A stretch of 38,533 nt of DNA, taken from positions 1-38,533 of the IMG/VR virus record IMGVR_UViG_2721755643_000003. One strand, 5' to 3'. A program made the translations under genes and the position numbers. The stretch is from a virus (lineage: Duplodnaviria > Heunggongvirae > Uroviricota > Caudoviricetes). Below are positions 994-38,533 of this stretch, piece after piece (positions within the stretch are counted from its first letter, which is position 1; each line of letters opens with the position of its first letter). The notes under the pieces were generated by a model. It was not told the DNA's origin and ran no database searches. It saw nothing but the letters and a program-made list of their open reading frames with translations.

Positions 994-1275
994 ATGCGAT
1001 GTGGTTTATTAATGGCAATCTGCCTTTGTTTAGTATCTTTTAGTGGATATGCAGCAACAGGAAAGTCTGATGCTCAGATCAAAAAAGAAATAATTAAAGA
1101 ATCCATTGAATCTTATCCAGGCAATTGTGCGTGTCCTTATAATCATGCAAGGAATGGTAGTAGATGTGGTGGACGCAGTGCATATAGCCGTAATGGAGGG
1201 TATGACGTGGTATGTTATGAGGGTGATGTTACCGATGAAATGATCCGGCAATGGAAGCAGGAGAATGCTGAGTAA
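994..1275 (+). CDS. Small secreted Cys/Gly-rich protein of unknown function (N-terminal signal peptide)
   Basis: ORF track 880..1275; likely start at the internal Met giving MRCGLLMAICLCLVSFSGYA signal-like N-terminus; AT-rich gene preceded by AT-rich promoter-like DNA (660-880); no family recognised. Confidence 0.4.
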   Translation: MRCGLLMAICLCLVSFSGYAATGKSDAQIKKEIIKESIESYPGNCACPYNHARNGSRCGGRSAYSRNGGYDVVCYEGDVTDEMIRQWKQENAE

Positions 1276-1351
1276 TCTCTTTTAACAGGTTTGTTGTGCG
1301 AGCATTATGTGCCGTTAACGGTACACTAGCTAGTGATAGTTCCAAAAAGAA

Positions 1352-1383
1352 AACCCGCAGTTCTTACGCTGCGGGTTTGTTGT
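1352..1383. terminator. Bidirectional rho-independent terminator between convergent genes
   Basis: Stem CCCGCAG / CTGCGGG flanked by AAAAAGAAAA on one side and TTTGTTGTT on the other, giving a U-tract on either strand. Confidence 0.6.
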
Positions 1384-1463
1384 TCACGTCTGTGAGATAG
1401 GGTGCCACTTCAGCCAACCTTAGCAACCGATTGACGGGGGATTGTTCCCCCGTCGCGGTTTCC

Positions 1464-1604
1464 TTACTGTTTACACTGTAAGAACGCCGCAAACTCCGCT
1501 CCCCAGAAGCTCATCCGTATTTCACACAGCGAACCGTGCAGCATCCAGATGATGAGGATTGCCGTCACGCAGAACGTGATGGCCGTAAGCGATTTTTGCG
1601 ACAT
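1464..1604 (-). CDS. Hok/Gef-family type I toxin-like small membrane peptide (46 aa)
   Basis: Own translation MSQKSLTAITFCVTAILIIWMLHGSLCEIRMSFWGAEFAAFLQCKQ; hydrophobic TM segment then SLCEIR and EFAAF, resembling Hok (SLCEIR...EVAAF); AAGGAG Shine-Dalgarno 8 nt upstream of ATG; below the 60-aa cut-off of the ORF track. Confidence 0.55.
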   Translation of the reverse strand: MSQKSLTAITFCVTAILIIWMLHGSLCEIRMSFWGAEFAAFLQCKQ

Positions 1605-2548
1605 AGCGCTTGCTCCTTTGTTGGAGAGGCGCTAACCTATCACTTGCTTAAGGTAGATATGTTAGGGCCTCGGTTAAACAGAAATGTTTTCCGGGGCCTT
1701 TCCACATCCGGCCTTCGGGTATTCCCTCCGACCATCAGCCGAAAGGCACCCGCGATTATTCTACTGATTTCCCGCTTCTCTGCTACGTAAAGTTTCACGT
1801 CACCCGTTCGGTTCTCCGCGAAAGTTAAAATTTTGCCGCTTTTGTCGCTGCTTTCGTGAGCGGTTTTTGCTTGCGCCTGAAAATAGTTACACAGTGAAAC
1901 TGTGTAACGCTGCGCCAAAACGATCCTTGTCCAATGTTTTGTTTTTACCTTTTATTTCATTGTGTTATGTGGTTCCTGTATGTGGCACTTTGGCGGCATT
2001 CAGATCCTTTAAAATGACGAAAACAAAAAATGGTTTTGTTTTTCATATGGTTAATTTTCCTGTCAGATCCTTTTTTAACGTTAATCTGGCAAAGCCTGGC
2101 AATCTTTGACACTTTGTGCCAGATGGCTTTTTTGTAAAGCGCCAGTGCTGGCGCGGTCTGGAGTGTCGTTTTGCACAAATTTATTTGGCAAAAAATTTTT
2201 ATCGTAAAGAGTGCAAGCGCGGGGGGCTTGCGCCCGTGCCGTGTGTTGGGCTCATCATGCCGTGAAATATCCACGTAGCGTGCGTGTACGCTTTCAGGCG
2301 TTACGAGCTGAATTCAGGGGGACTCGCGCGTTTATTTGCTTAAAGCATGTCGCAGAATGCGATACAGCGCGTCTGGTGGGGGGTGTTTTTCTGGGGGAAT
2401 GCCCGTCGCGACGGGCTTTCGTCTGGTTCGATGAATGAAATTTATTGATATATGAATAATTTCACGAAAGGCTTATTTGTCTGTATTTTGTGGCATGATT
2501 CTTGAGTGGTAAACCGGGCTGCCTGTGCACCTCTTCTCATCTGTAAAC

Positions 2549-4237
2549 TTACTGCTTAATCACGGTACTGTACTTCGCTTTCAGGTTGCCTGCCATTGAT
2601 GCCACCGTGTCTATGCTGCCGCTGTTGGTGGGCTGTGACGACCCGTTGTTGGTATGAGTGTGTTGTGCGGTGAGCTGCGCCAGTTGCTGAACGGTGTCGC
2701 AAAGATCCAGCATGAGGTTAAGTGTGTTGATGGTATTGCTGCCAAACCAGACCTGCGGGGCGATGATCTGTTGCATCTGGCCAGCGACGGATTTTTTAAT
2801 CCGGCCAATCTTTTCTTCCAGCGTTTTCGCCACATTGTGGGTGGTGCTTTCTGTGCTGGTTTGCCACTGGTGAGTAACGTCGAGTTCAGCGCTGTCGGCG
2901 TGCTGTATCAGTTTCTTCGTGGCGGCTACGGCATAGTCACCGTCTGCGATGTGCTGTATGTGGCCGCTCATCAGCTTATGAGTGCCGAGCACCGTTATGG
3001 TGTTGTTGGCCTTTACGGTAATATTACGAGTGGTACTGGTGCGCGTTTCCGTTGTGTTCTGGATGATGCGGTCGGTGGATTTCTCACGAATAACCTGATC
3101 GGTTTCACGCTGCCATGTGCCATCTGTATGCACACGCTGGAATACCTCTGCGCGTTGCTGTTGTAGTTGTTCGCCGGGCTTTATTCCCGGCAGACTCTGG
3201 CCGCTGGCGTGAGTGCCGGTGATGATGGGTTTATCCGGCCTGCCGTCAACGTGGGCCAGTGTAACTATGGTTCCTGGGGGCGGGTACTGGAATATCCCGG
3301 ATTCATTGCCGGCCATTGGCACAGGAACGGGGACGGCGTTATATACCGGTGTGTTCTTATCGGGGGTGCCGTTCTCGTCGAGCAACTGCACATTGACGGC
3401 GTAGCGTGGGCGAAATTCATCATGCAAATCCCCCTGGGTTGTGTTTTCAGTTGGTGAGATCACGCGTCCCATGCGTGGAAGGTGGGTTTTGTTGCCTATC
3501 TCGGGGTAAAGGGTTTCGATCTGGCGTTGTACGGGCGACTGACGGCCATCACTCCAGCTAATGATCATGCTGTCGCCCTGTAGCTGTACCTGATTTATAC
3601 GGTGATCGTTCATGACCACGCCGGGGCGCATCATGGGAATCGTCTGTATTGTCCAGCCATTTGCTCCGTGATCACCTCTGGTGATATCGACCGGCAATCT
3701 GGCAGGGCGTTTTGCAAAACGGCAGTCAGCAAAGCTTCCGGCGTAGATGATGCCGTCAACCGACGGATACCAGACGTAATCCGGGATACTGAATATGCGG
3801 CCAAGCATGGCCATCAGCTGATAACCGTTGCCATTGTGGGTCAGATGAGGGACCGGAGTGGTGGTGTAGCCTGCCTTCGGGAGTTGTATGCGTAAACCTG
3901 TATTGCCTTCAATGTGTCCTGCGACCTGTTTCAGCGTCGGATGCTGCATGGAGATGTTGAGCGGGTATTGCAGAATAGCAGCAGCTTCGCGCACCATCAG
4001 CTTGTGCAGCCCTCTGCCTGTACAACTGTCACTTTCCACATATCCCGAAAACCACTTTACAGGCTGATCATTGTAACCGATGGACAGCTCTACGGGTTTG
4101 CCGCGTAGCGGGGGAGTATTGTCGGCGGCGTTAATGGTGATAAAGCCGGTTCCCGCGCCGTTGAGACGCAACATGATGTTTTCTTCCACGACAGGATAAC
4201 GCCTGCCGTTAATGCAGAGATCACGAATTGGTTTCAT
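2549..4237 (-). CDS. Baseplate hub / central spike protein (gpD- and gpV-like, VgrG-like)
   Basis: 562 aa; N-terminal CINGRRYPV...LNGAGTG resembles the P2 gpD TLNGRDIT region; central GIFQYPPPGTIVTLAHVDGRPDKPIITG resembles the gpV/gp5 OB-fold; C-terminal HxH (GHIQHI); last gene of the tail operon. Confidence 0.55.
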   Translation of the reverse strand: MKPIRDLCINGRRYPVVEENIMLRLNGAGTGFITINAADNTPPLRGKPVELSIGYNDQPVKWFSGYVESDSCTGRGLHKLMVREAAAILQYPLNISMQHPTLKQVAGHIEGNTGLRIQLPKAGYTTTPVPHLTHNGNGYQLMAMLGRIFSIPDYVWYPSVDGIIYAGSFADCRFAKRPARLPVDITRGDHGANGWTIQTIPMMRPGVVMNDHRINQVQLQGDSMIISWSDGRQSPVQRQIETLYPEIGNKTHLPRMGRVISPTENTTQGDLHDEFRPRYAVNVQLLDENGTPDKNTPVYNAVPVPVPMAGNESGIFQYPPPGTIVTLAHVDGRPDKPIITGTHASGQSLPGIKPGEQLQQQRAEVFQRVHTDGTWQRETDQVIREKSTDRIIQNTTETRTSTTRNITVKANNTITVLGTHKLMSGHIQHIADGDYAVAATKKLIQHADSAELDVTHQWQTSTESTTHNVAKTLEEKIGRIKKSVAGQMQQIIAPQVWFGSNTINTLNLMLDLCDTVQQLAQLTAQHTHTNNGSSQPTNSGSIDTVASMAGNLKAKYSTVIKQ

Positions 4238-4787
4238 TGCCTGCCGGGCCTATCCAGTTATTGAGTTTGTCTGACATTTTCCAGAACCAGCCATGCTCTT
4301 CGTTTTTTTCGCCTTTGCCACCTGATTTGACGGCCTGTGCGTGCTGTTCAGCACTCTGGCTGCCAGCCGGGCCGCGTCCTGTCGCCTTTTCGGCACTGCT
4401 GAGTTTTTCTTTCAGAGTGAAGTCAACTTTCCATGCCATCAGGCCTGTTTCAGGAGTTGCGCCCACGGCACCGGAAAAAATCCCTTGCTTCATATTGACC
4501 GCTTTGGCATCCATGTTGGCGATGCGGTAAACCTGTTGTGCACCGTTAGCGGCTCTGGCTTCAGCCAGACGAAATAAGCGTGTGAGTGCTTCCGGCTGGG
4601 TGAACGGAATCAGTCCGGAAATCTGCAGCTCCTTGGCTTTTACACCCTGTTCTGAAGTCGCTGTTGATGAGGATTTTCCGGAAGCGTCTTTGTCTTTGAT
4701 GGTCAGCTTCACGCTGACACTTAAGCGTTTTAGCGGGATTATCTGACCATTAAGGGCCAGCAGTGGCGTTGTCGTGTTCTGGCTCAT
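4221..4787 (-). CDS. Hypothetical phage tail-associated protein
   Basis: 188-aa ORF on the tail-operon strand between the fibre chaperone and hub/spike; Lys/Ala/Ser-rich; no family recognised; GC content similar to core genes. Confidence 0.35.
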   Translation of the reverse strand: MSQNTTTPLLALNGQIIPLKRLSVSVKLTIKDKDASGKSSSTATSEQGVKAKELQISGLIPFTQPEALTRLFRLAEARAANGAQQVYRIANMDAKAVNMKQGIFSGAVGATPETGLMAWKVDFTLKEKLSSAEKATGRGPAGSQSAEQHAQAVKSGGKGEKNEEHGWFWKMSDKLNNWIGPAGNETNS

Positions 4788-5493
4788 TTTCTGCCTTCGT
4801 TATCCAGTTCAGCATCCCGGAAAGATCGCCTGCGAACAGGTGTGCATATGTCAGTGAAGCTGTGGGGTGCGGAATATTTTTCATCATTTCCCGGCGGGCT
4901 AAAACGGCGTCGCCGGTGTGCACGAACGCAAATGCTTTTGCCACTTTATCGCCTGCTCCTGCCAGTTCAGCGATTATCTGTTGCTGCAACCGTTGACGTT
5001 GTGCCTGAAAACCGGATAACGCGTTTTTCAGTGAGTCGACAGAGTTCAGCCCTTCGGCCTTCATAGCGTTAAGCGCGGTGTGGTTACTGATGCTGTTCTG
5101 TAGTGTGCTGGCAATAAGTGGTTGCGGAGCGGGTAGTCCGTTCTGTGGTGTCGCCGGGATTTGCATTCTGGTGATTGCCTGGGTGAGCTGTGTTCTTGCG
5201 CGTCTTAGCGTCTGCGTCAGAGTGGGTAAAGGGAGTGTGTCTGCCAGTGCTGACAGTTGACGAATAAAATCGTTATTATTGCTGCCTGTTACCATTATGA
5301 TGGCGATATCGCTGTTTTCGGTCAGGCCCGGGAGTTTGCTGTTAAGGTGGTTTATTGCGTTGACGGGGCTTAAATACGCACCGTCTGGCGTAATGTGCCC
5401 CGCTTCAACATCCCACGGATGTACGGCCATAGCTGAACATGTTATGGGGGTGATATTACCTGTCGGAAGCATCAGTTTTGCCGGAAACCACAT
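4750..5493 (-). CDS. Hypothetical phage tail-associated protein
   Basis: ORF track 4750..5688, trimmed to the Met at 5493, which has a GAGAGG Shine-Dalgarno 8 nt upstream and avoids overlap with the upstream gene; no family recognised. Confidence 0.35.
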   Translation of the reverse strand: MWFPAKLMLPTGNITPITCSAMAVHPWDVEAGHITPDGAYLSPVNAINHLNSKLPGLTENSDIAIIMVTGSNNNDFIRQLSALADTLPLPTLTQTLRRARTQLTQAITRMQIPATPQNGLPAPQPLIASTLQNSISNHTALNAMKAEGLNSVDSLKNALSGFQAQRQRLQQQIIAELAGAGDKVAKAFAFVHTGDAVLARREMMKNIPHPTASLTYAHLFAGDLSGMLNWITKAENEPEHDNATAGP

Positions 5494-35104: not shown

Positions 35105-35455
35105 TTATAACTCAGCCTGTTTAATAAAATTTTCTCCGTAAAGAAGGCGATCAACTGTGCGTAGCGCTTCGTACAACGTGAAATCCTGCCCGAACTGATT
35201 GTCGCCGCAGCTCAGAGCAAAAATGCGGTTTCCGGTAAACGGATTGCGCGGGTATTTGTGGACCACTATTCCAGCTTTCTCAATCATCCAGGTATGCTCG
35301 CCAATTTGTTTTACTGTATGGCCATCTGGTGTTGCGTGCGTCTCGTTCAGGTTATAGCGACTGTTACTACGTGATGCACTGGTAGCGACGTGGTGTACAT
35401 GGCGTTCTACGCCATTACGAAATTTGGAGTATGGATTATTAGTGTTTTTTTTCAT
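35105..35455 (-). CDS. Hypothetical early protein
   Basis: 116-aa ORF in the early operon. Confidence 0.35.
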   Translation of the reverse strand: MKKNTNNPYSKFRNGVERHVHHVATSASRSNSRYNLNETHATPDGHTVKQIGEHTWMIEKAGIVVHKYPRNPFTGNRIFALSCGDNQFGQDFTLYEALRTVDRLLYGENFIKQAEL

Positions 35456-35476
35456 GATGATGCTCTGTTCATTGTT

Positions 35477-35680
35477 TTAGCTGTTAGCCAAAGCGTCTTT
35501 TAACATCGCCACAAGGTTTACTTCAGGCTTTTCCATTTTGGCGCGTTTGGGGCGGATAATAATTCGACCGTCAGCCAACATCTTTTTGCATGTATTAAGA
35601 GGGATACCTGTTATCTCTGCATATTTCTGCAGGGATACATAGGGGGCATTCACATTGATATTGATGGTTATACCTGACAT
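35477..35680 (-). CDS. Cox-like HTH excisionase/regulator (putative)
   Basis: 67 aa; YVSLQKYAEITGIPLNTCKKMLADGRIIIRP resembles P2 Cox YQEFAKLIGKSTGAVRRMIDKGKLPVI; second gene of the early operon. Confidence 0.5.
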   Translation of the reverse strand: MSGITININVNAPYVSLQKYAEITGIPLNTCKKMLADGRIIIRPKRAKMEKPEVNLVAMLKDALANS

Positions 35681-35696
35681 CCCACTAACCTCCTGA

Positions 35697-35903
35697 TCAG
35701 GAAGATTTGTTTTGTTCTTTCTGGGTTAGCTCTAGGCCGCGAAGGAAGATCATGCGCGCCATGTTAGAGGATGAGCGTTGTTCTTTAGCTGCCATCTCAT
35801 CAATAAAGGCGCGCTCCTCCGCTGACAGTCGAAGTGCCAGTCTTTGACCTGTGGCGGTGTTACGCGGAATGCGTGACTTGGTGTCGTGACTAACTTGATT
35901 CAT
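35697..35903 (-). CDS. Ribbon-helix-helix-like DNA-binding protein, first early gene (Cro/Apl-like role, putative)
   Basis: 68 aa; RLALRLSAEERAFIDEMAAKEQRSSSNMARMIFLRGL fits an RHH pattern; divergent from the repressor gene. Confidence 0.45.
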   Translation of the reverse strand: MNQVSHDTKSRIPRNTATGQRLALRLSAEERAFIDEMAAKEQRSSSNMARMIFLRGLELTQKEQNKSS

Positions 35904-35970
35904 AGTGGTACATTGTGATCATCTAATGGTTCGTGAAATTACTTTAGGGAACAAAACTTCCTATGTCAAC
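35904..35970. promoter_or_regulatory. Lysis-lysogeny switch region (early promoter; repressor promoter nearby)
   Basis: 59-bp divergent intergenic region; on the - strand a perfect -35 TTGACA (overlapping the repressor start codon), 17-nt spacer, -10 TAAAGT; layout as in P2/186 face-to-face switches. Confidence 0.45.
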
Positions 35971-36376
35971 AGAAAAAGAGGAACTAAGCGTCATTATTGG
36001 CCGTCGATTACGGGAGGAGCGAGAGAAAATTGGCATGACCCAAGATGATATGGCGTCGATTTTTGAAGTTTCTACAAAGACTTGGGGGAAGTATGAAAGA
36101 GGGGTGACTACACCGGATGCAGTTATGTTGAATCTCTTGGGAGGGCGCTGCGGAGTAGATGTCTATTACATACTTTCTGGTAGTCGTGCACATGGCATCC
36201 CTAATGCTACTGAAGATGAGATTGAGCTAATTAAAATATATCGTTCTGCACCTTTGGCTGTTAAGGCGGCAGCTTTGGCAGCCTTGACTGCTGGTAGTTT
36301 GTCTCTAGGTACAATAAGAGCTTCTGGCAAAGGCCATCGTATTGCAGGTCGTGACTATAACGAAACGAAGGGTTAG
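35963..36376 (+). CDS. Prophage repressor (XRE/CI-family HTH)
   Basis: 137 aa; HTH in LREEREKIGMTQDDMASIFEVSTKTWGKYERG; divergent from the early operon and on the same strand as the integrase. Confidence 0.75.
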   Translation: MSTEKEELSVIIGRRLREEREKIGMTQDDMASIFEVSTKTWGKYERGVTTPDAVMLNLLGGRCGVDVYYILSGSRAHGIPNATEDEIELIKIYRSAPLAVKAAALAALTAGSLSLGTIRASGKGHRIAGRDYNETKG

Positions 36377-36394
36377 TGATAGTAGGGAGGTGAC

Positions 36395-37042
36395 ATGGCT
36401 GTCAACTCAAACGGTTCAGACAATCGCGTTTCTGGGCGTGATTACCACGAAAAGAACATTCGGATAGAGCGGTATGATGGTCGTCATACAGTCAACATTG
36501 CAATCCCTTCCTGTGGGGCTGATGAGCGCCCATTAGTCAAGGCTCAGCGCCATCAACTGAAGTTGTTGGTTGATAAGATTGTTGATGTCAGCAAGGAAGA
36601 ATCGTTTGTTGTCTGGCGTAAACTTCATGCTGAAATCGGTGTTGATAGCATCGATAAGATGACGGTGAATCAGTATCCAACCGCAATTAGCTTCCTCAAT
36701 GCGATGCTTGACCGACATAAAGAGCGCGACGCCTGCAAATCACTTGTAAGTCTCCTTCTTCGCAATAGTGAGAATAATGAAGCTAGACAAAAACTTCTTC
36801 GATATTGTCATATCAATTTTGGAACAGGGCGCTTAAATGATCTTACTCGCTCTCAGCTTCAGATGGCTCTTTCATGGTTAGATCAGCAAACAACAGACTG
36901 TGAAAATAATTTGCCCTCAGATAATTCTAAATTTGTCGATAAACAATCGCGATTAGTGTTTCAGCAAATAATTAAAACATATCCAAAAGAAATGGGGGTA
37001 TGTTTTGTTATTGGTGTTTTATTAGGCATGATTCTTTTCTGA
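36395..37042 (+). CDS. Repressor-linked membrane-anchored protein of unknown function (candidate lysogeny-expressed exclusion/defence gene)
   Basis: 215 aa, 18 nt downstream of the repressor on the same strand; C-terminal TM helix GVCFVIGVLLGMILF; 3' half AT-rich; N-terminus repeats the GRDY(N/H)E motif of the repressor C-terminus. Confidence 0.5.
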   Translation: MAVNSNGSDNRVSGRDYHEKNIRIERYDGRHTVNIAIPSCGADERPLVKAQRHQLKLLVDKIVDVSKEESFVVWRKLHAEIGVDSIDKMTVNQYPTAISFLNAMLDRHKERDACKSLVSLLLRNSENNEARQKLLRYCHINFGTGRLNDLTRSQLQMALSWLDQQTTDCENNLPSDNSKFVDKQSRLVFQQIIKTYPKEMGVCFVIGVLLGMILF

Positions 37043-37247
37043 TAGATCGTTGTTGGAGAAATCAATTATGGCAAAAGCTTGCTTTAACGACTTTGAAAGA
37101 AATAAAAAAGATAAATTAAGCGAGCTGACAAAGGTGAGATAAGGGGGAGTGCAACTAGTAATGTAAAAAATGGTGTGAGTTACTTGTCATAGTCTTAAAG
37201 TGAAGTAATTCCTTGTTCACTAGGAAGTTCAAAGAGGTAAATGAATT

Positions 37248-37505
37248 ATGGTAACTAATCCGCAAATTCCATTGACTGGCTTATATGTATCCAAAGTTAA
37301 TCCATCTAATCGTATAGTTGTTACTGATGTTCATATTGTTTAGGATGATGACGATGAGCCAGGAGAGCTTCCTTTCTATTTGGTTACTTTTGTAAATGAG
37401 GGGGATGAGGATGATATGTTGGCTCCTTCTTGGGAGCTAGATCCTGAGGAATGGGAGCAGTTAGTTGATGAAGAGCGCTTTATGCGCGTGGAGCAACCAT
37501 CTTAA
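37248..37505 (+). pseudogene. Small acidic ORF interrupted by an in-frame TAG (nonsense-disrupted gene or readthrough candidate)
   Basis: MVTNPQIPLTGLYVSKVNPSNRIVVTDVHIV-TAG-DDDDEPGELPFYLVTFVNEGDEDDMLAPSWELDPEEWEQLVDEERFMRVEQPS; the frame stays open through the amber at 37341-37343 to a TAA at 37503-37505; AAGAGG upstream. Confidence 0.35.
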
Positions 37506-37531
37506 TTTATCCTTGGTGTGCACTTTTTAAG

Positions 37532-38533
37532 ATGTCTGTTCGTAAATTACCTACTGGCAAATGGCTCTGTGAATGCTACCCCTACGGAGCAGCAGGAAAA
37601 CGCATTCGTAAACAGTTTGTTACTAAGGGTGAGGCGCTCTCTTATGAGCGCCGTTTAATGAACAGTAATTTGGGGAGCGAGTTTCAGGATGGTTCTGGCC
37701 CCCGCCTTTCCGAGTTGGTTGCTCGCTGGTTTGAGATGTACGGTAAGACACTGTCTTCCGGTGAAGAGCGAAGGGCTAAACTTGAGGCGATTTGCTCCCG
37801 GTTGGGGGATCCGCTTGCTTCTCAATTTGATAAAAACATGTTTGCCACCTACAGGGAACGGCGATTATCAGGTGAATGGAATCCAAAGGGGAAGAGGAAG
37901 CTTAGCGAAGCAACCGTTAATCGTGAGCAGTCATATCTACATGCTGTTTTTGCCGAACTGAAGCGCCTTGGGGAGTGGTCTGGTGAAAACCCCTTAACTG
38001 GCATTCGCAAATTTCGTGAGGAAGAAAAGGAACTGGCGTTTCTGTATGTAGATGAGATTGAACGCCTTCTGATTGCGTGTGATGAGTCACGGAATAAAGA
38101 TTTGGGGGTTGTTGTCCGTATTGGGCTTGCGACTGGTGCTCGGTGGAGTGAAGCAGAAGGATTAAAGCAATCTCAAGTACTGCCCGGTCGAATCACATTT
38201 GTTAAAACTAAAGGAAAGAAGAACCGCACTGTACCGATTTCACCTCAATTGCAGGCTATGCTTCCTAAAAAACGAGGAGCGCTATTTTCACCATGTTATG
38301 AGGCTTTTGACGCTGCAATTAAGAGAGCGAAGATCGAGCTTCCTGATGGGCAATTAACTCATGTGCTACGTCACACGTTTGCCAGTCATTTTATGATGCG
38401 GGGCGGAAATATTCTTGTGTTGCAAAAAATACTGGGGCATAGCGATATAAAAATGACTATGCGTTATGCGCATTTTGCTCCAGGTCATTTAGAGGCTGCT
38501 GTTGAATTGAACCCTTTTGACAATAGAGGGTAA
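37532..38533 (+). CDS. Tyrosine integrase (P2-family)
   Basis: 333 aa; ATGARWSEA, RITFVKTKGKKNRTVPIS and LRHTFASHFMMRGGNILVLQKILGHSDIKMTMRYAHFAPGHL align with remembered P2 Int motifs (catalytic R...H-x-x-R...Y); its stop is the last codon of the window. Confidence 0.9.
   Translation: MSVRKLPTGKWLCECYPYGAAGKRIRKQFVTKGEALSYERRLMNSNLGSEFQDGSGPRLSELVARWFEMYGKTLSSGEERRAKLEAICSRLGDPLASQFDKNMFATYRERRLSGEWNPKGKRKLSEATVNREQSYLHAVFAELKRLGEWSGENPLTGIRKFREEEKELAFLYVDEIERLLIACDESRNKDLGVVVRIGLATGARWSEAEGLKQSQVLPGRITFVKTKGKKNRTVPISPQLQAMLPKKRGALFSPCYEAFDAAIKRAKIELPDGQLTHVLRHTFASHFMMRGGNILVLQKILGHSDIKMTMRYAHFAPGHLEAAVELNPFDNRG

Follow-up and report, generated by a model that had tools for sequence, protein, structure and literature searches.

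This work concerns a 38,533-nucleotide stretch of viral DNA (IMG/VR record IMGVR_UViG_2721755643_000003, positions 1 to 38,533; hereafter the window), which is a P2/186-like Escherichia coli prophage integrated at yecA. We found that its immunity repressor, Rep, and the 215-residue protein encoded immediately downstream, which we call ORF215, form a conserved two-gene immunity module as judged from gene order, and that the C-terminal tail of Rep matches the N-terminus of ORF215. Comparison across phages further showed that this terminal motif differs between lineages yet stays matched within each repressor-partner pair. We propose that ORF215 may be a membrane-tethered partner or titrator of Rep, a reading to which we assign a little less than an even chance.

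Organization and conservation of the gene pair

Rep (137 residues; 35963..36376, + strand) matched Pfam HTH_19, HTH_31 and HTH_3 as well as PHROG transcriptional repressor families. In an AlphaFold2 (AF2) model, the protein comprises an XRE-type helix-turn-helix (HTH) domain (residues 1-72), two helices (84-115) and a C-terminal tail (116-137) that is predicted to be disordered, with a predicted local distance difference test (pLDDT) score of about 50. The downstream gene (36395..37042, + strand) encodes ORF215, a predicted tail-anchored inner-membrane protein of the Flk_N family (phrog_5825, PF27202). Direct reading of the junction (36374..36394, + strand) revealed four in-frame stops, TAG TGA TAG TAG, and after them a Shine-Dalgarno sequence (GGAGG) placed 4 nt ahead of the start codon of ORF215; this ATG lies 18 nt past the Rep stop. 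The four stops rule out a read-through Rep-ORF215 fusion in this phage and, together with the separate GGAGG site, indicate that Rep and ORF215 are made as separate proteins. No natural fusion of an HTH domain to Flk_N was found among 87 family representatives.

A scan for promoters and terminators gave match counts at or below those expected from shuffled sequence, and from rep to the integrase gene (int) it revealed neither a + strand promoter nor a terminator between genes. The sole terminator-like match lies inside rep and is probably due to chance. An Rfam scan of 35400-38533 returned nothing meaningful. ORF215 is very probably co-transcribed with rep because only 18 nt separate the two genes, no terminator intervenes and their adjacency is conserved, which supports what an earlier reading of the interval from its letters (hereafter the sequence-only reading) had proposed.

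We sampled relatives of the prophage by their integrase (Int), a choice that is neutral as to ORF215, at a cut-off of at least 69% Int identity. Forty-eight IMG/VR loci passed, and the 47 with upstream sequence made up the informative set; about 25 of the integrase-anchored loci represent one near-identical E. coli type, and the independent lineages number nearer a dozen. Cox-like and Arc-like genes on the leftward strand, followed on the rightward strand by rep, an ORF215 homolog, a variable segment and int, were found in this order in 46 of the 47 informative loci. The sole exception, L042 (3630-3992), has no ORF215 homolog, and its 120-residue repressor abuts int and has a different C-terminus without the GRDY tail described below, such that tail and ORF215 are absent together. 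The same gene order was found in nine genomes of other Enterobacterales genera, and the genera with this order comprise Enterobacter, Rosenbergiella, Izhakiella, Mixta, Erwinia, Symbiopectobacterium, Hafnia and Arsenophonus. Loci in which Int is only 55-59% identical lack the whole module. By this distribution, ORF215 is a conserved core gene and not mobile cargo. The sequence-only reading had assigned everything between repressor and integrase to cargo; the synteny of the interval contradicts this for ORF215 and bears it out for the AT-rich slot that follows, which is variable and holds unrelated genes in relatives.

The layout of the window is of the P2/186 type, with an HTH repressor and an integrase on the + strand and Arc-like and Cox-like early genes on the - strand. 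In P2 and 186, the repressor gene directly adjoins int. Here, unlike in those phages, rep and int lie 1.15 kb apart, separated by ORF215 and the slot, and direct adjacency was seen only in the exceptional L042. The interval is 100% identical in three complete E. coli genomes (RMDEC332, RMDEC364 and VL46), where it adjoins yecA, and each of its genes is 100% identical in the IMG/VR contig L013. At the DNA level, the interval had no match among 50,697 phage records, and in a protein search of phage records ORF215 matched only Escherichia phage 520873 and, weakly, a Ralstonia phage. Phage 520873 (NC_049344.1 2459-3065, - strand) is the sole isolated phage with a close ORF215 homolog, which is in three pieces there and is unannotated.

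A shared terminal motif in Rep and ORF215

The tail of Rep carries the motif TIRASGKGHRIAGRDYNE (residues 117-134; 36311..36364, + strand), which is conserved in repressor homologs, and its counterpart at the N-terminus of ORF215 is VNSNGSDNRVSGRDYHE (residues 3-19; 36401..36451, + strand), which is conserved across the family. The sequence-only reading had noted a repeat of GRDY(N/H)E at these two termini, and the repeat proved to be larger than described, with a match that spans approximately 17 residues. In a six-frame translation of the whole 38.5-kb window, GRDY(N/H)E occurs exactly twice (36344 and 36431). Repressors with no more than 44-49% identity elsewhere have an invariant tail, and the terminal pattern NR[VI]AGRD[YF]xExKK was present in 118 of 120 repressor homologs. 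The N-terminal motif is likewise invariant in ORF215 homologs (N10, R11, G14, R15, D16 and E19). In an Arsenophonus prophage (L011, 3697-3966), an extra 89-residue partial copy of the repressor, with its own GRDYNE tail, lies between the repressor and the Flk_N gene.

One explanation for the match is that it is functionless and is either maintained by repeated rounds of local duplication or gene conversion where the two genes meet or left over from the splitting of one ancestral gene, in which case the function of ORF215 would be unrelated to Rep. The two copies lie 87 nt apart in the same reading frame, which favors slippage or conversion, and the partial repressor copy in the Arsenophonus prophage shows that duplication occurs at this location. 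Two GC-rich lineages also show higher codon identity across the motif (6/9 and 8/12), and gene conversion may contribute there. However, few of the identical motif residues use the same codon in the P2-like loci (2/7, 1/11 and 2/9), nucleotide identity across the motif is only about 50-57%, and a DNA repeat search found no repeat at the motif sites. Because the codons mostly differ at this level of nucleotide identity and no DNA repeat is present, we conclude that the match in the P2-like clade is kept at the protein level and not by ongoing gene conversion. Moreover, within this repressor family, whose members share 44-57% identity elsewhere, no part is better conserved than the tail. We give a functionless match only a small chance. 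The duplication or recombination junction that the sequence-only reading had suggested is not a recent scar, given that the codons mostly differ and that the motif co-varies across distant lineages, as described next.

Co-variation of the motif across distant phages

All members of the P2-like clade share one version of the motif, which makes the scoring of cognate against non-cognate pairs within this clade uninformative. We looked up distant Flk_N proteins with differing N-termini, which yielded nine further lineages that include Mu-like transposable phages and phages of other layouts. An HTH repressor is encoded upstream on the same strand in eight of the nine, directly so in seven; in L102, an 88-codon gene separates the HTH repressor from the Flk_N gene, and for L103 the upstream sequence is too short to judge. 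In seven of these eight lineages, the end of the repressor and the beginning of its cognate Flk_N protein look alike, and the sequence is specific to each lineage, as illustrated by the motifs QQFxGxVxxVxxGD, QxFNxxIxxGxFAxRDIVN, QVFxxxVGQxxAG and QxxxGxVGNVxxGxVT. For example, the L093 tail QQFNGPVGTVTTGDVVN corresponds to the partner N-terminus QQFHGAVEQVAAGDIKN, the L094 tail QTFNAPISGGEFAARDIVN to QEFNNQIHDGQFAGRDIVN, and the L098 tail QVIHGDVLGNVIKGNVTM to QTVNGEVGNVVSGDVTI. When all tails were scored against all N-termini of seven lineages, the cognate pairing scored best of all 5040 permutations, and with 10 lineages, 2 of 200,000 random permutations did at least as well as the cognate pairing. 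The N-terminal motif and the cognate repressor tail match in 9 of 10 deep lineages.

This pattern also bears on the possibility that the shared peptide is a tag for a host factor, such as an FtsH-type membrane protease, with ORF215 serving as a CIII-like decoy that protects Rep or times its turnover. AAA+ proteases that initiate at a terminus need a disordered terminal handle. Both motifs lie on predicted disordered termini of about 20-40 residues, and ORF215 would display such a handle at the membrane. A conserved host factor, however, predicts a single conserved tag, whereas the motif is lineage-specific and matched within each pair, which points to a phage-encoded partner that co-evolves with it. 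We consider the tag very unlikely.

Family assignment and predicted structure of ORF215

ORF215 matched phrog_5825, a PHROG family of unknown function, over its full length (residues 1-215; E 1.8e-86), and PF27202 (Flk_N) is precomputed for an identical protein (P0001) and for all close homologs. Residues 40-166 aligned with residues 25-150 of Flk (RflH, 'Fluke'), a 333-residue flagella regulator of Salmonella and E. coli, in NCBIfam model NF007987 (E 2.8e-15, 56.4 bits), and hhalign of ORF215 against Flk orthologs gave a probability of 98.8% (E 1.1e-16). The NF007987 score misses the cut-off for a Flk equivalog, which is 353 bits. Flk-type representatives are 336-408 residues long and contain two matched stretches joined by a long linker, whereas ORF215 consists of a single Flk_N unit. 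We conclude from these comparisons that ORF215 belongs to the Flk_N family without being a Flk ortholog: it is shorter (215 residues against about 333), contains a single unit in place of two and is encoded by a phage. Host Flk proteins (P0151, P0160, P0167 and others) matched the ORF215 domain in two stretches, which indicates a tandem duplication of Flk_N.

An AF2 model of ORF215, built from a 51-sequence alignment, predicts a disordered N-terminus (residues 1-40, pLDDT 49-58) and a helical region (45-171, pLDDT >96), followed by a linker and a terminal helix (187-214). The Flk_N helical domain (residues 40-168; 36512..36898, + strand), which is homologous to Flk residues 25-153, is predicted to be cytoplasmic. 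A hydrophobic C-terminal anchor, MGVCFVIGVLLGMILF (residues 200-215; 36992..37039, + strand), is supported by hydropathy and by the AF2 helix; its GxxxG (G207 and G211) is invariant, and hydropathy peaks at the extreme C-terminus (last 16 residues) across the family. The sequence-only reading was therefore correct in describing a 215-residue protein with a C-terminal transmembrane anchor that begins 18 nt past the Rep stop. In Flk, an anchor at the C-terminus keeps a cytoplasmic domain attached to the inner membrane (PMC13344023), and the predicted topology of ORF215, with its membrane anchor at the C-terminus and the remainder cytoplasmic, would agree with this architecture; the Flk_N helical domain is likewise common to both proteins.

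Based on this likeness, ORF215 could mimic host Flk at the FlhA/FlhB gate of flagellar type III export, which would alter flagellar assembly or the secretion of late substrates in lysogens and could, for example, provide resistance to flagellotropic phages or lower flagellin exposure. The homology between the two domains is clear, and they share the design of a cytoplasmic domain with a C-terminal anchor. However, a score of 56 against 353 bits is far under the equivalog cut-off, ORF215 is without the second repeat and the long linker of Flk, and Flk has no GRD-type motif at its N-terminus. Unlike Flk, ORF215 is encoded by a prophage, is paired with a repressor and has, at its N-terminus, a peptide copy of the repressor tail. 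Why several phage types should link the gene strictly to a repressor is not explained by a flagellar role. We find such mimicry of Flk improbable.

One unit of ORF215, approximately 60 residues in length, weakly resembles the C-terminal domain (CTD) of Red-beta, NinB, the Sak CTD and the ORF6C/Bro-N-associated modules of phage regulators, and the structural matches include PDB 8tfu, in which the Red-beta CTD is bound to the C-terminal peptide of SSB. Compared with the Red-beta CTD, lambda NinB (Orf) and the Sak CTD, ORF215 shows 11-20% identity and has no recombination domain, and the fold is a small and widespread one; the likeness is a lead and not a classification. The best structural match in BFVD was an ORF6C-domain protein (E 6e-3, a weak match), and phrog_245 (Ant antirepressor) matched weakly over 55 residues (51-105; E 1.7e-6). 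Foldseek against PDB gave no match below E 0.5, and a PDB sequence search gave none at E up to 10. A Pfam match to DUF7032 fell below threshold and was dismissed. The ratio of nonsynonymous to synonymous substitution rates (dN/dS) of ORF215 is 0.19-0.29, and by this measure the gene is under purifying selection. The GC content of its first two thirds is 0.46-0.48, which resembles that of the repressor gene, and that of its 3' end and the slot is 0.32-0.42.

ORF215 as a candidate partner of Rep

We propose that the matched termini reflect a physical or functional coupling of Rep and ORF215, in which either the two terminal peptides would pair or both would compete for one co-evolving site. The most obvious choice for such a site would be the Flk_N domain of ORF215 itself, which is the only lineage-specific candidate at hand. 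Modules that bind C-terminal tails, such as the Red-beta CTD with SSB (8tfu), show a weak likeness to the three-helix unit of this domain. At the inner membrane, ORF215 could serve as a tether, a titrator, or an anti- or co-repressor that sets the amount of free repressor, and the outcome would be a tuning of the lysis-lysogeny switch or of immunity rather than a transferable defense gene. The motif-bearing termini of both proteins are predicted to be disordered and were modeled with low confidence, as expected for short interaction peptides.

Several observations weigh against this proposal. L099 has the gene pair without a recognizable matched motif, and the higher motif codon identity of the two GC-rich lineages described above belongs here as well. 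Insertions of 0.65-2 kb are tolerated between rep and ORF215 (L052, L058 and L060), which indicates that tight coupling of their expression is not obligatory. The AF2 model leaves the N-terminal peptide of ORF215 undocked on the protein's own helical domain (pLDDT about 50), which speaks against a strong pseudo-ligand in cis. Furthermore, an antirepressor that is co-transcribed with its own repressor would be unusual.

ORF215 may act like an antirepressor or a co-repressor. Antirepressors of the P22 Ant-like and ORF6C/Bro-N/KilA kinds (PHROG 245) show a weak likeness to ORF215 in sequence and fold, and the proposed role in repressor availability would be common to them. Unlike antirepressors, ORF215 is predicted to be anchored in the membrane, is without a Bro-N, KilA or ANT domain and is probably co-transcribed with the repressor, whereas antirepressors are separately controlled. 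To our knowledge, terminal-peptide mimicry is not a described feature of antirepressors.

ORF215 could instead be a membrane protein that the lysogenic operon supplies for superinfection exclusion or defense and that would prevent DNA entry or abort the infection, comparable to K139 Glo, lambda RexB or HK97 gp15, with the motif match incidental. The gene is oriented with rep and follows it closely without a terminator in between, its product is predicted to be anchored in the membrane, and the neighboring slot has known or candidate defense genes in relatives. Lambda rexAB are accessory genes of a lysogenic operon that are linked to the repressor, and their products are associated with the membrane or envelope. 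A precedent in position is glo ('K139 family immunity gene') of phage K139, which is linked to the repressor, lies between cI and int and encodes a periplasmic protein (PMC4870250). As at the position of ORF215, glo lies beside the repressor gene, is expressed in the lysogen and has an envelope-associated product. However, ORF215 is near-universal in its lineage rather than variable, gave no match to a defense family in a PADLOC search at E up to 1, and is predicted to be almost entirely cytoplasmic, in contrast to Glo, with no periplasmic part to meet an incoming phage. It has no sequence relationship to Glo or rexAB and differs from them in being kept across P2-like and Mu-like phages and in sharing a co-varying peptide with its repressor. 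An exclusion role also accounts neither for the lineage-specific matching of the tails nor for the fact that L042 lacks both the tail and the gene. Exclusion or defense is no longer the best-supported reading of ORF215, and we consider it unlikely.

Returning to ORF215 as a partner of Rep, the Rep-Flk_N pair may by extension represent an unrecognized and widespread lysogeny-control module in temperate phages of Proteobacteria, P2-like and Mu-like ones included. In such a module, peptide mimicry would tether, titrate or compete with Rep at the inner membrane and couple the switch to a membrane or envelope signal, and Flk_N would be a domain that binds terminal peptides. This broader proposal is tentative, and we are rather doubtful of it in its full extent. 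A literature search, whose coverage excluded most subscription journals, found no description of terminal mimicry or of a pairing between a repressor and a tail-anchored Flk_N protein.

The divergent early operon and the integrase

The first divergent early gene encodes an Arc-like ribbon-helix-helix protein (68 residues; 35697..35903, - strand; phrog_3431, E 2.7e-27) and is kept in all related loci. RefSeq leaves this ORF unannotated and calls a 45-residue ORF on the opposite strand or a pseudogene instead. The second early gene encodes a Cox-like excisionase/repressor (67 residues; 35477..35680, - strand; phrog_575, E 1.2e-27). The start of rep and the start of the divergent early genes are 59 bp apart, and a leftward sigma-70-like promoter (TTGACA, 17 nt spacer, TAAAGT; 35941-35969, - strand) overlaps the rep start codon, which suggests that the early and lysogenic promoters face each other, as they do in P2 and 186. 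In some relatives, 0.9-1.1 kb are inserted between the Arc-like gene and rep (L047 813-1738, L052 516-1455 and L053 411-1560), and these insertions carry ORFs of 160-184 residues and a conserved 91-residue ORF on the opposite strand.

At the other end of the interval, int encodes a tyrosine integrase (333 residues; 37532..38533, + strand; Pfam Int_N E 3.2e-32, Phage_integrase E 2e-22), which RefSeq names 'phage integrase' beside yecA. Synonymous divergence from L002 and L017 drops steeply along the operon: it is saturated in rep, lies at about 1.1-1.3 for ORF215 and has come down to about 0.31 for int, a gradient that fits a swapping of immunity modules through recombination.

The variable slot and the disrupted DUF8087 gene

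Between ORF215 and int lies an AT-rich variable slot (37043..37531, + strand). Its length of 489 bp agrees with the approximately 490 bp given by the sequence-only reading, and its composition is as AT-rich as claimed there, with a GC content of 0.32-0.35 over 36900-37400 compared with 0.45-0.51 on both flanks. Among relatives, the interval between ORF215 and int ranges from 27 bp to about 2.3 kb and has unrelated contents, which include genes for DUF2511 secreted proteins, VasI-like secreted proteins, BRCT-domain proteins, Abi_alpha proteins and DUF8087, the last in five loci. The Abi_alpha proteins match PDC-S47 (E 5e-60), and the BRCT-domain proteins show partial similarity to PDC-S48. Judged by these lengths and contents, the stretch is a genuine variable cargo slot of this lineage. 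Slot coordinates in relatives are L052 3126-3971, L038 3125-4000, L039 3126-4004, L045 2805-3998, L040 3346-3990 and L014 3648-3995. The defense hotspots of P2-like prophages (Rousset et al. 2022; PMC13586616) are likewise variable in length and content, and in comparison with them the position of the slot is set here more precisely, downstream of the Rep-Flk_N pair. A second slot lies between rep and ORF215, where L058 carries an RnlA/RnlB toxin-antitoxin pair (Pfam) on the other strand (1437-2868, - strand). In phages outside the P2 group (L093 and L094), the Rep-Flk_N pair is followed by defense-like cargo and then by lysis genes; L093 encodes a TIR_2 protein (3990-4862), and L094 encodes a 468-residue protein and a D12 methyltransferase (1256-3569).

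The slot of the window contains a nonsense-disrupted gene of 85 codons for a small acidic protein of the DUF8087/phrog_17127 family (37248..37505, + strand), identified from PHROG and from alignment with the E. coli Bongo locus, which establishes the identity of the disrupted small acidic ORF that the sequence-only reading had noticed. Fragments at 37248-37343 and 37380-37505 match phrog_17127 positions 1-31 (E 3.5e-12) and 45-85 (E 1.8e-14), respectively, and RefSeq names the 41-residue fragment a DUF8087 domain-containing protein. The disruption consists of one in-frame TAG at codon 32 (37341-37343), which is CTG in the intact E. coli Bongo gene, and there is no frameshift. Intact homologs occur in L002, L006, L009 and L041, and the intact protein has a pI of 4.05. 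Three observations together suggest that the nonsense change is recent: comparison with the intact Bongo allele gives a dN/dS of 0.14, the reading frame is preserved past the stop, and no locus other than the three identical genomes and the IMG/VR contig was seen to carry the stop. A search of phage records gave no match for DUF8087.

A possible ORF of 24 codons, MAKACFNDFERNKKDKLSELTKVR, whose status is uncertain, lies upstream in the slot (37068..37142, + strand), with GGAG 9 nt before it. E. coli Bongo (L002 4728-4799) keeps this ORF with four amino-acid changes and a slightly longer end. The context of its start resembles that of the DUF8087 start (repeat D5), and a repeat search of the AT-rich stretch found nothing structured. 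In PADLOC at E up to 1, neither the DUF8087 fragments nor the small ORFs had a match, and this slot holds no recognized defense gene, only the disrupted DUF8087 gene and the doubtful 24-codon ORF.

Implications

Phage immunity regions are among the best-studied genetic switches, and the accessory controls known to us are soluble antirepressors, RecA-mediated proteolysis and small peptides. A membrane-anchored partner that shares a co-varying terminal peptide with its repressor would, if true, be a new wiring of such a switch, and the pairing of Rep with Flk_N, with termini that co-vary, looks like a new variation on the control of phage repressors. The core gene can now be separated from the true slot beside int, which allows sharper hotspot maps for the mining of P2-like defense genes and cautions that genes adjacent to a repressor are not automatically defense morons. 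The mode of action of Flk in flagellar secretion switching is still being worked out. The gene pair offers a first functional handle on the Flk_N domain, that of host Flk included, and if Flk_N binds terminal peptides, this would provide a testable mechanism for the long-enigmatic host protein.

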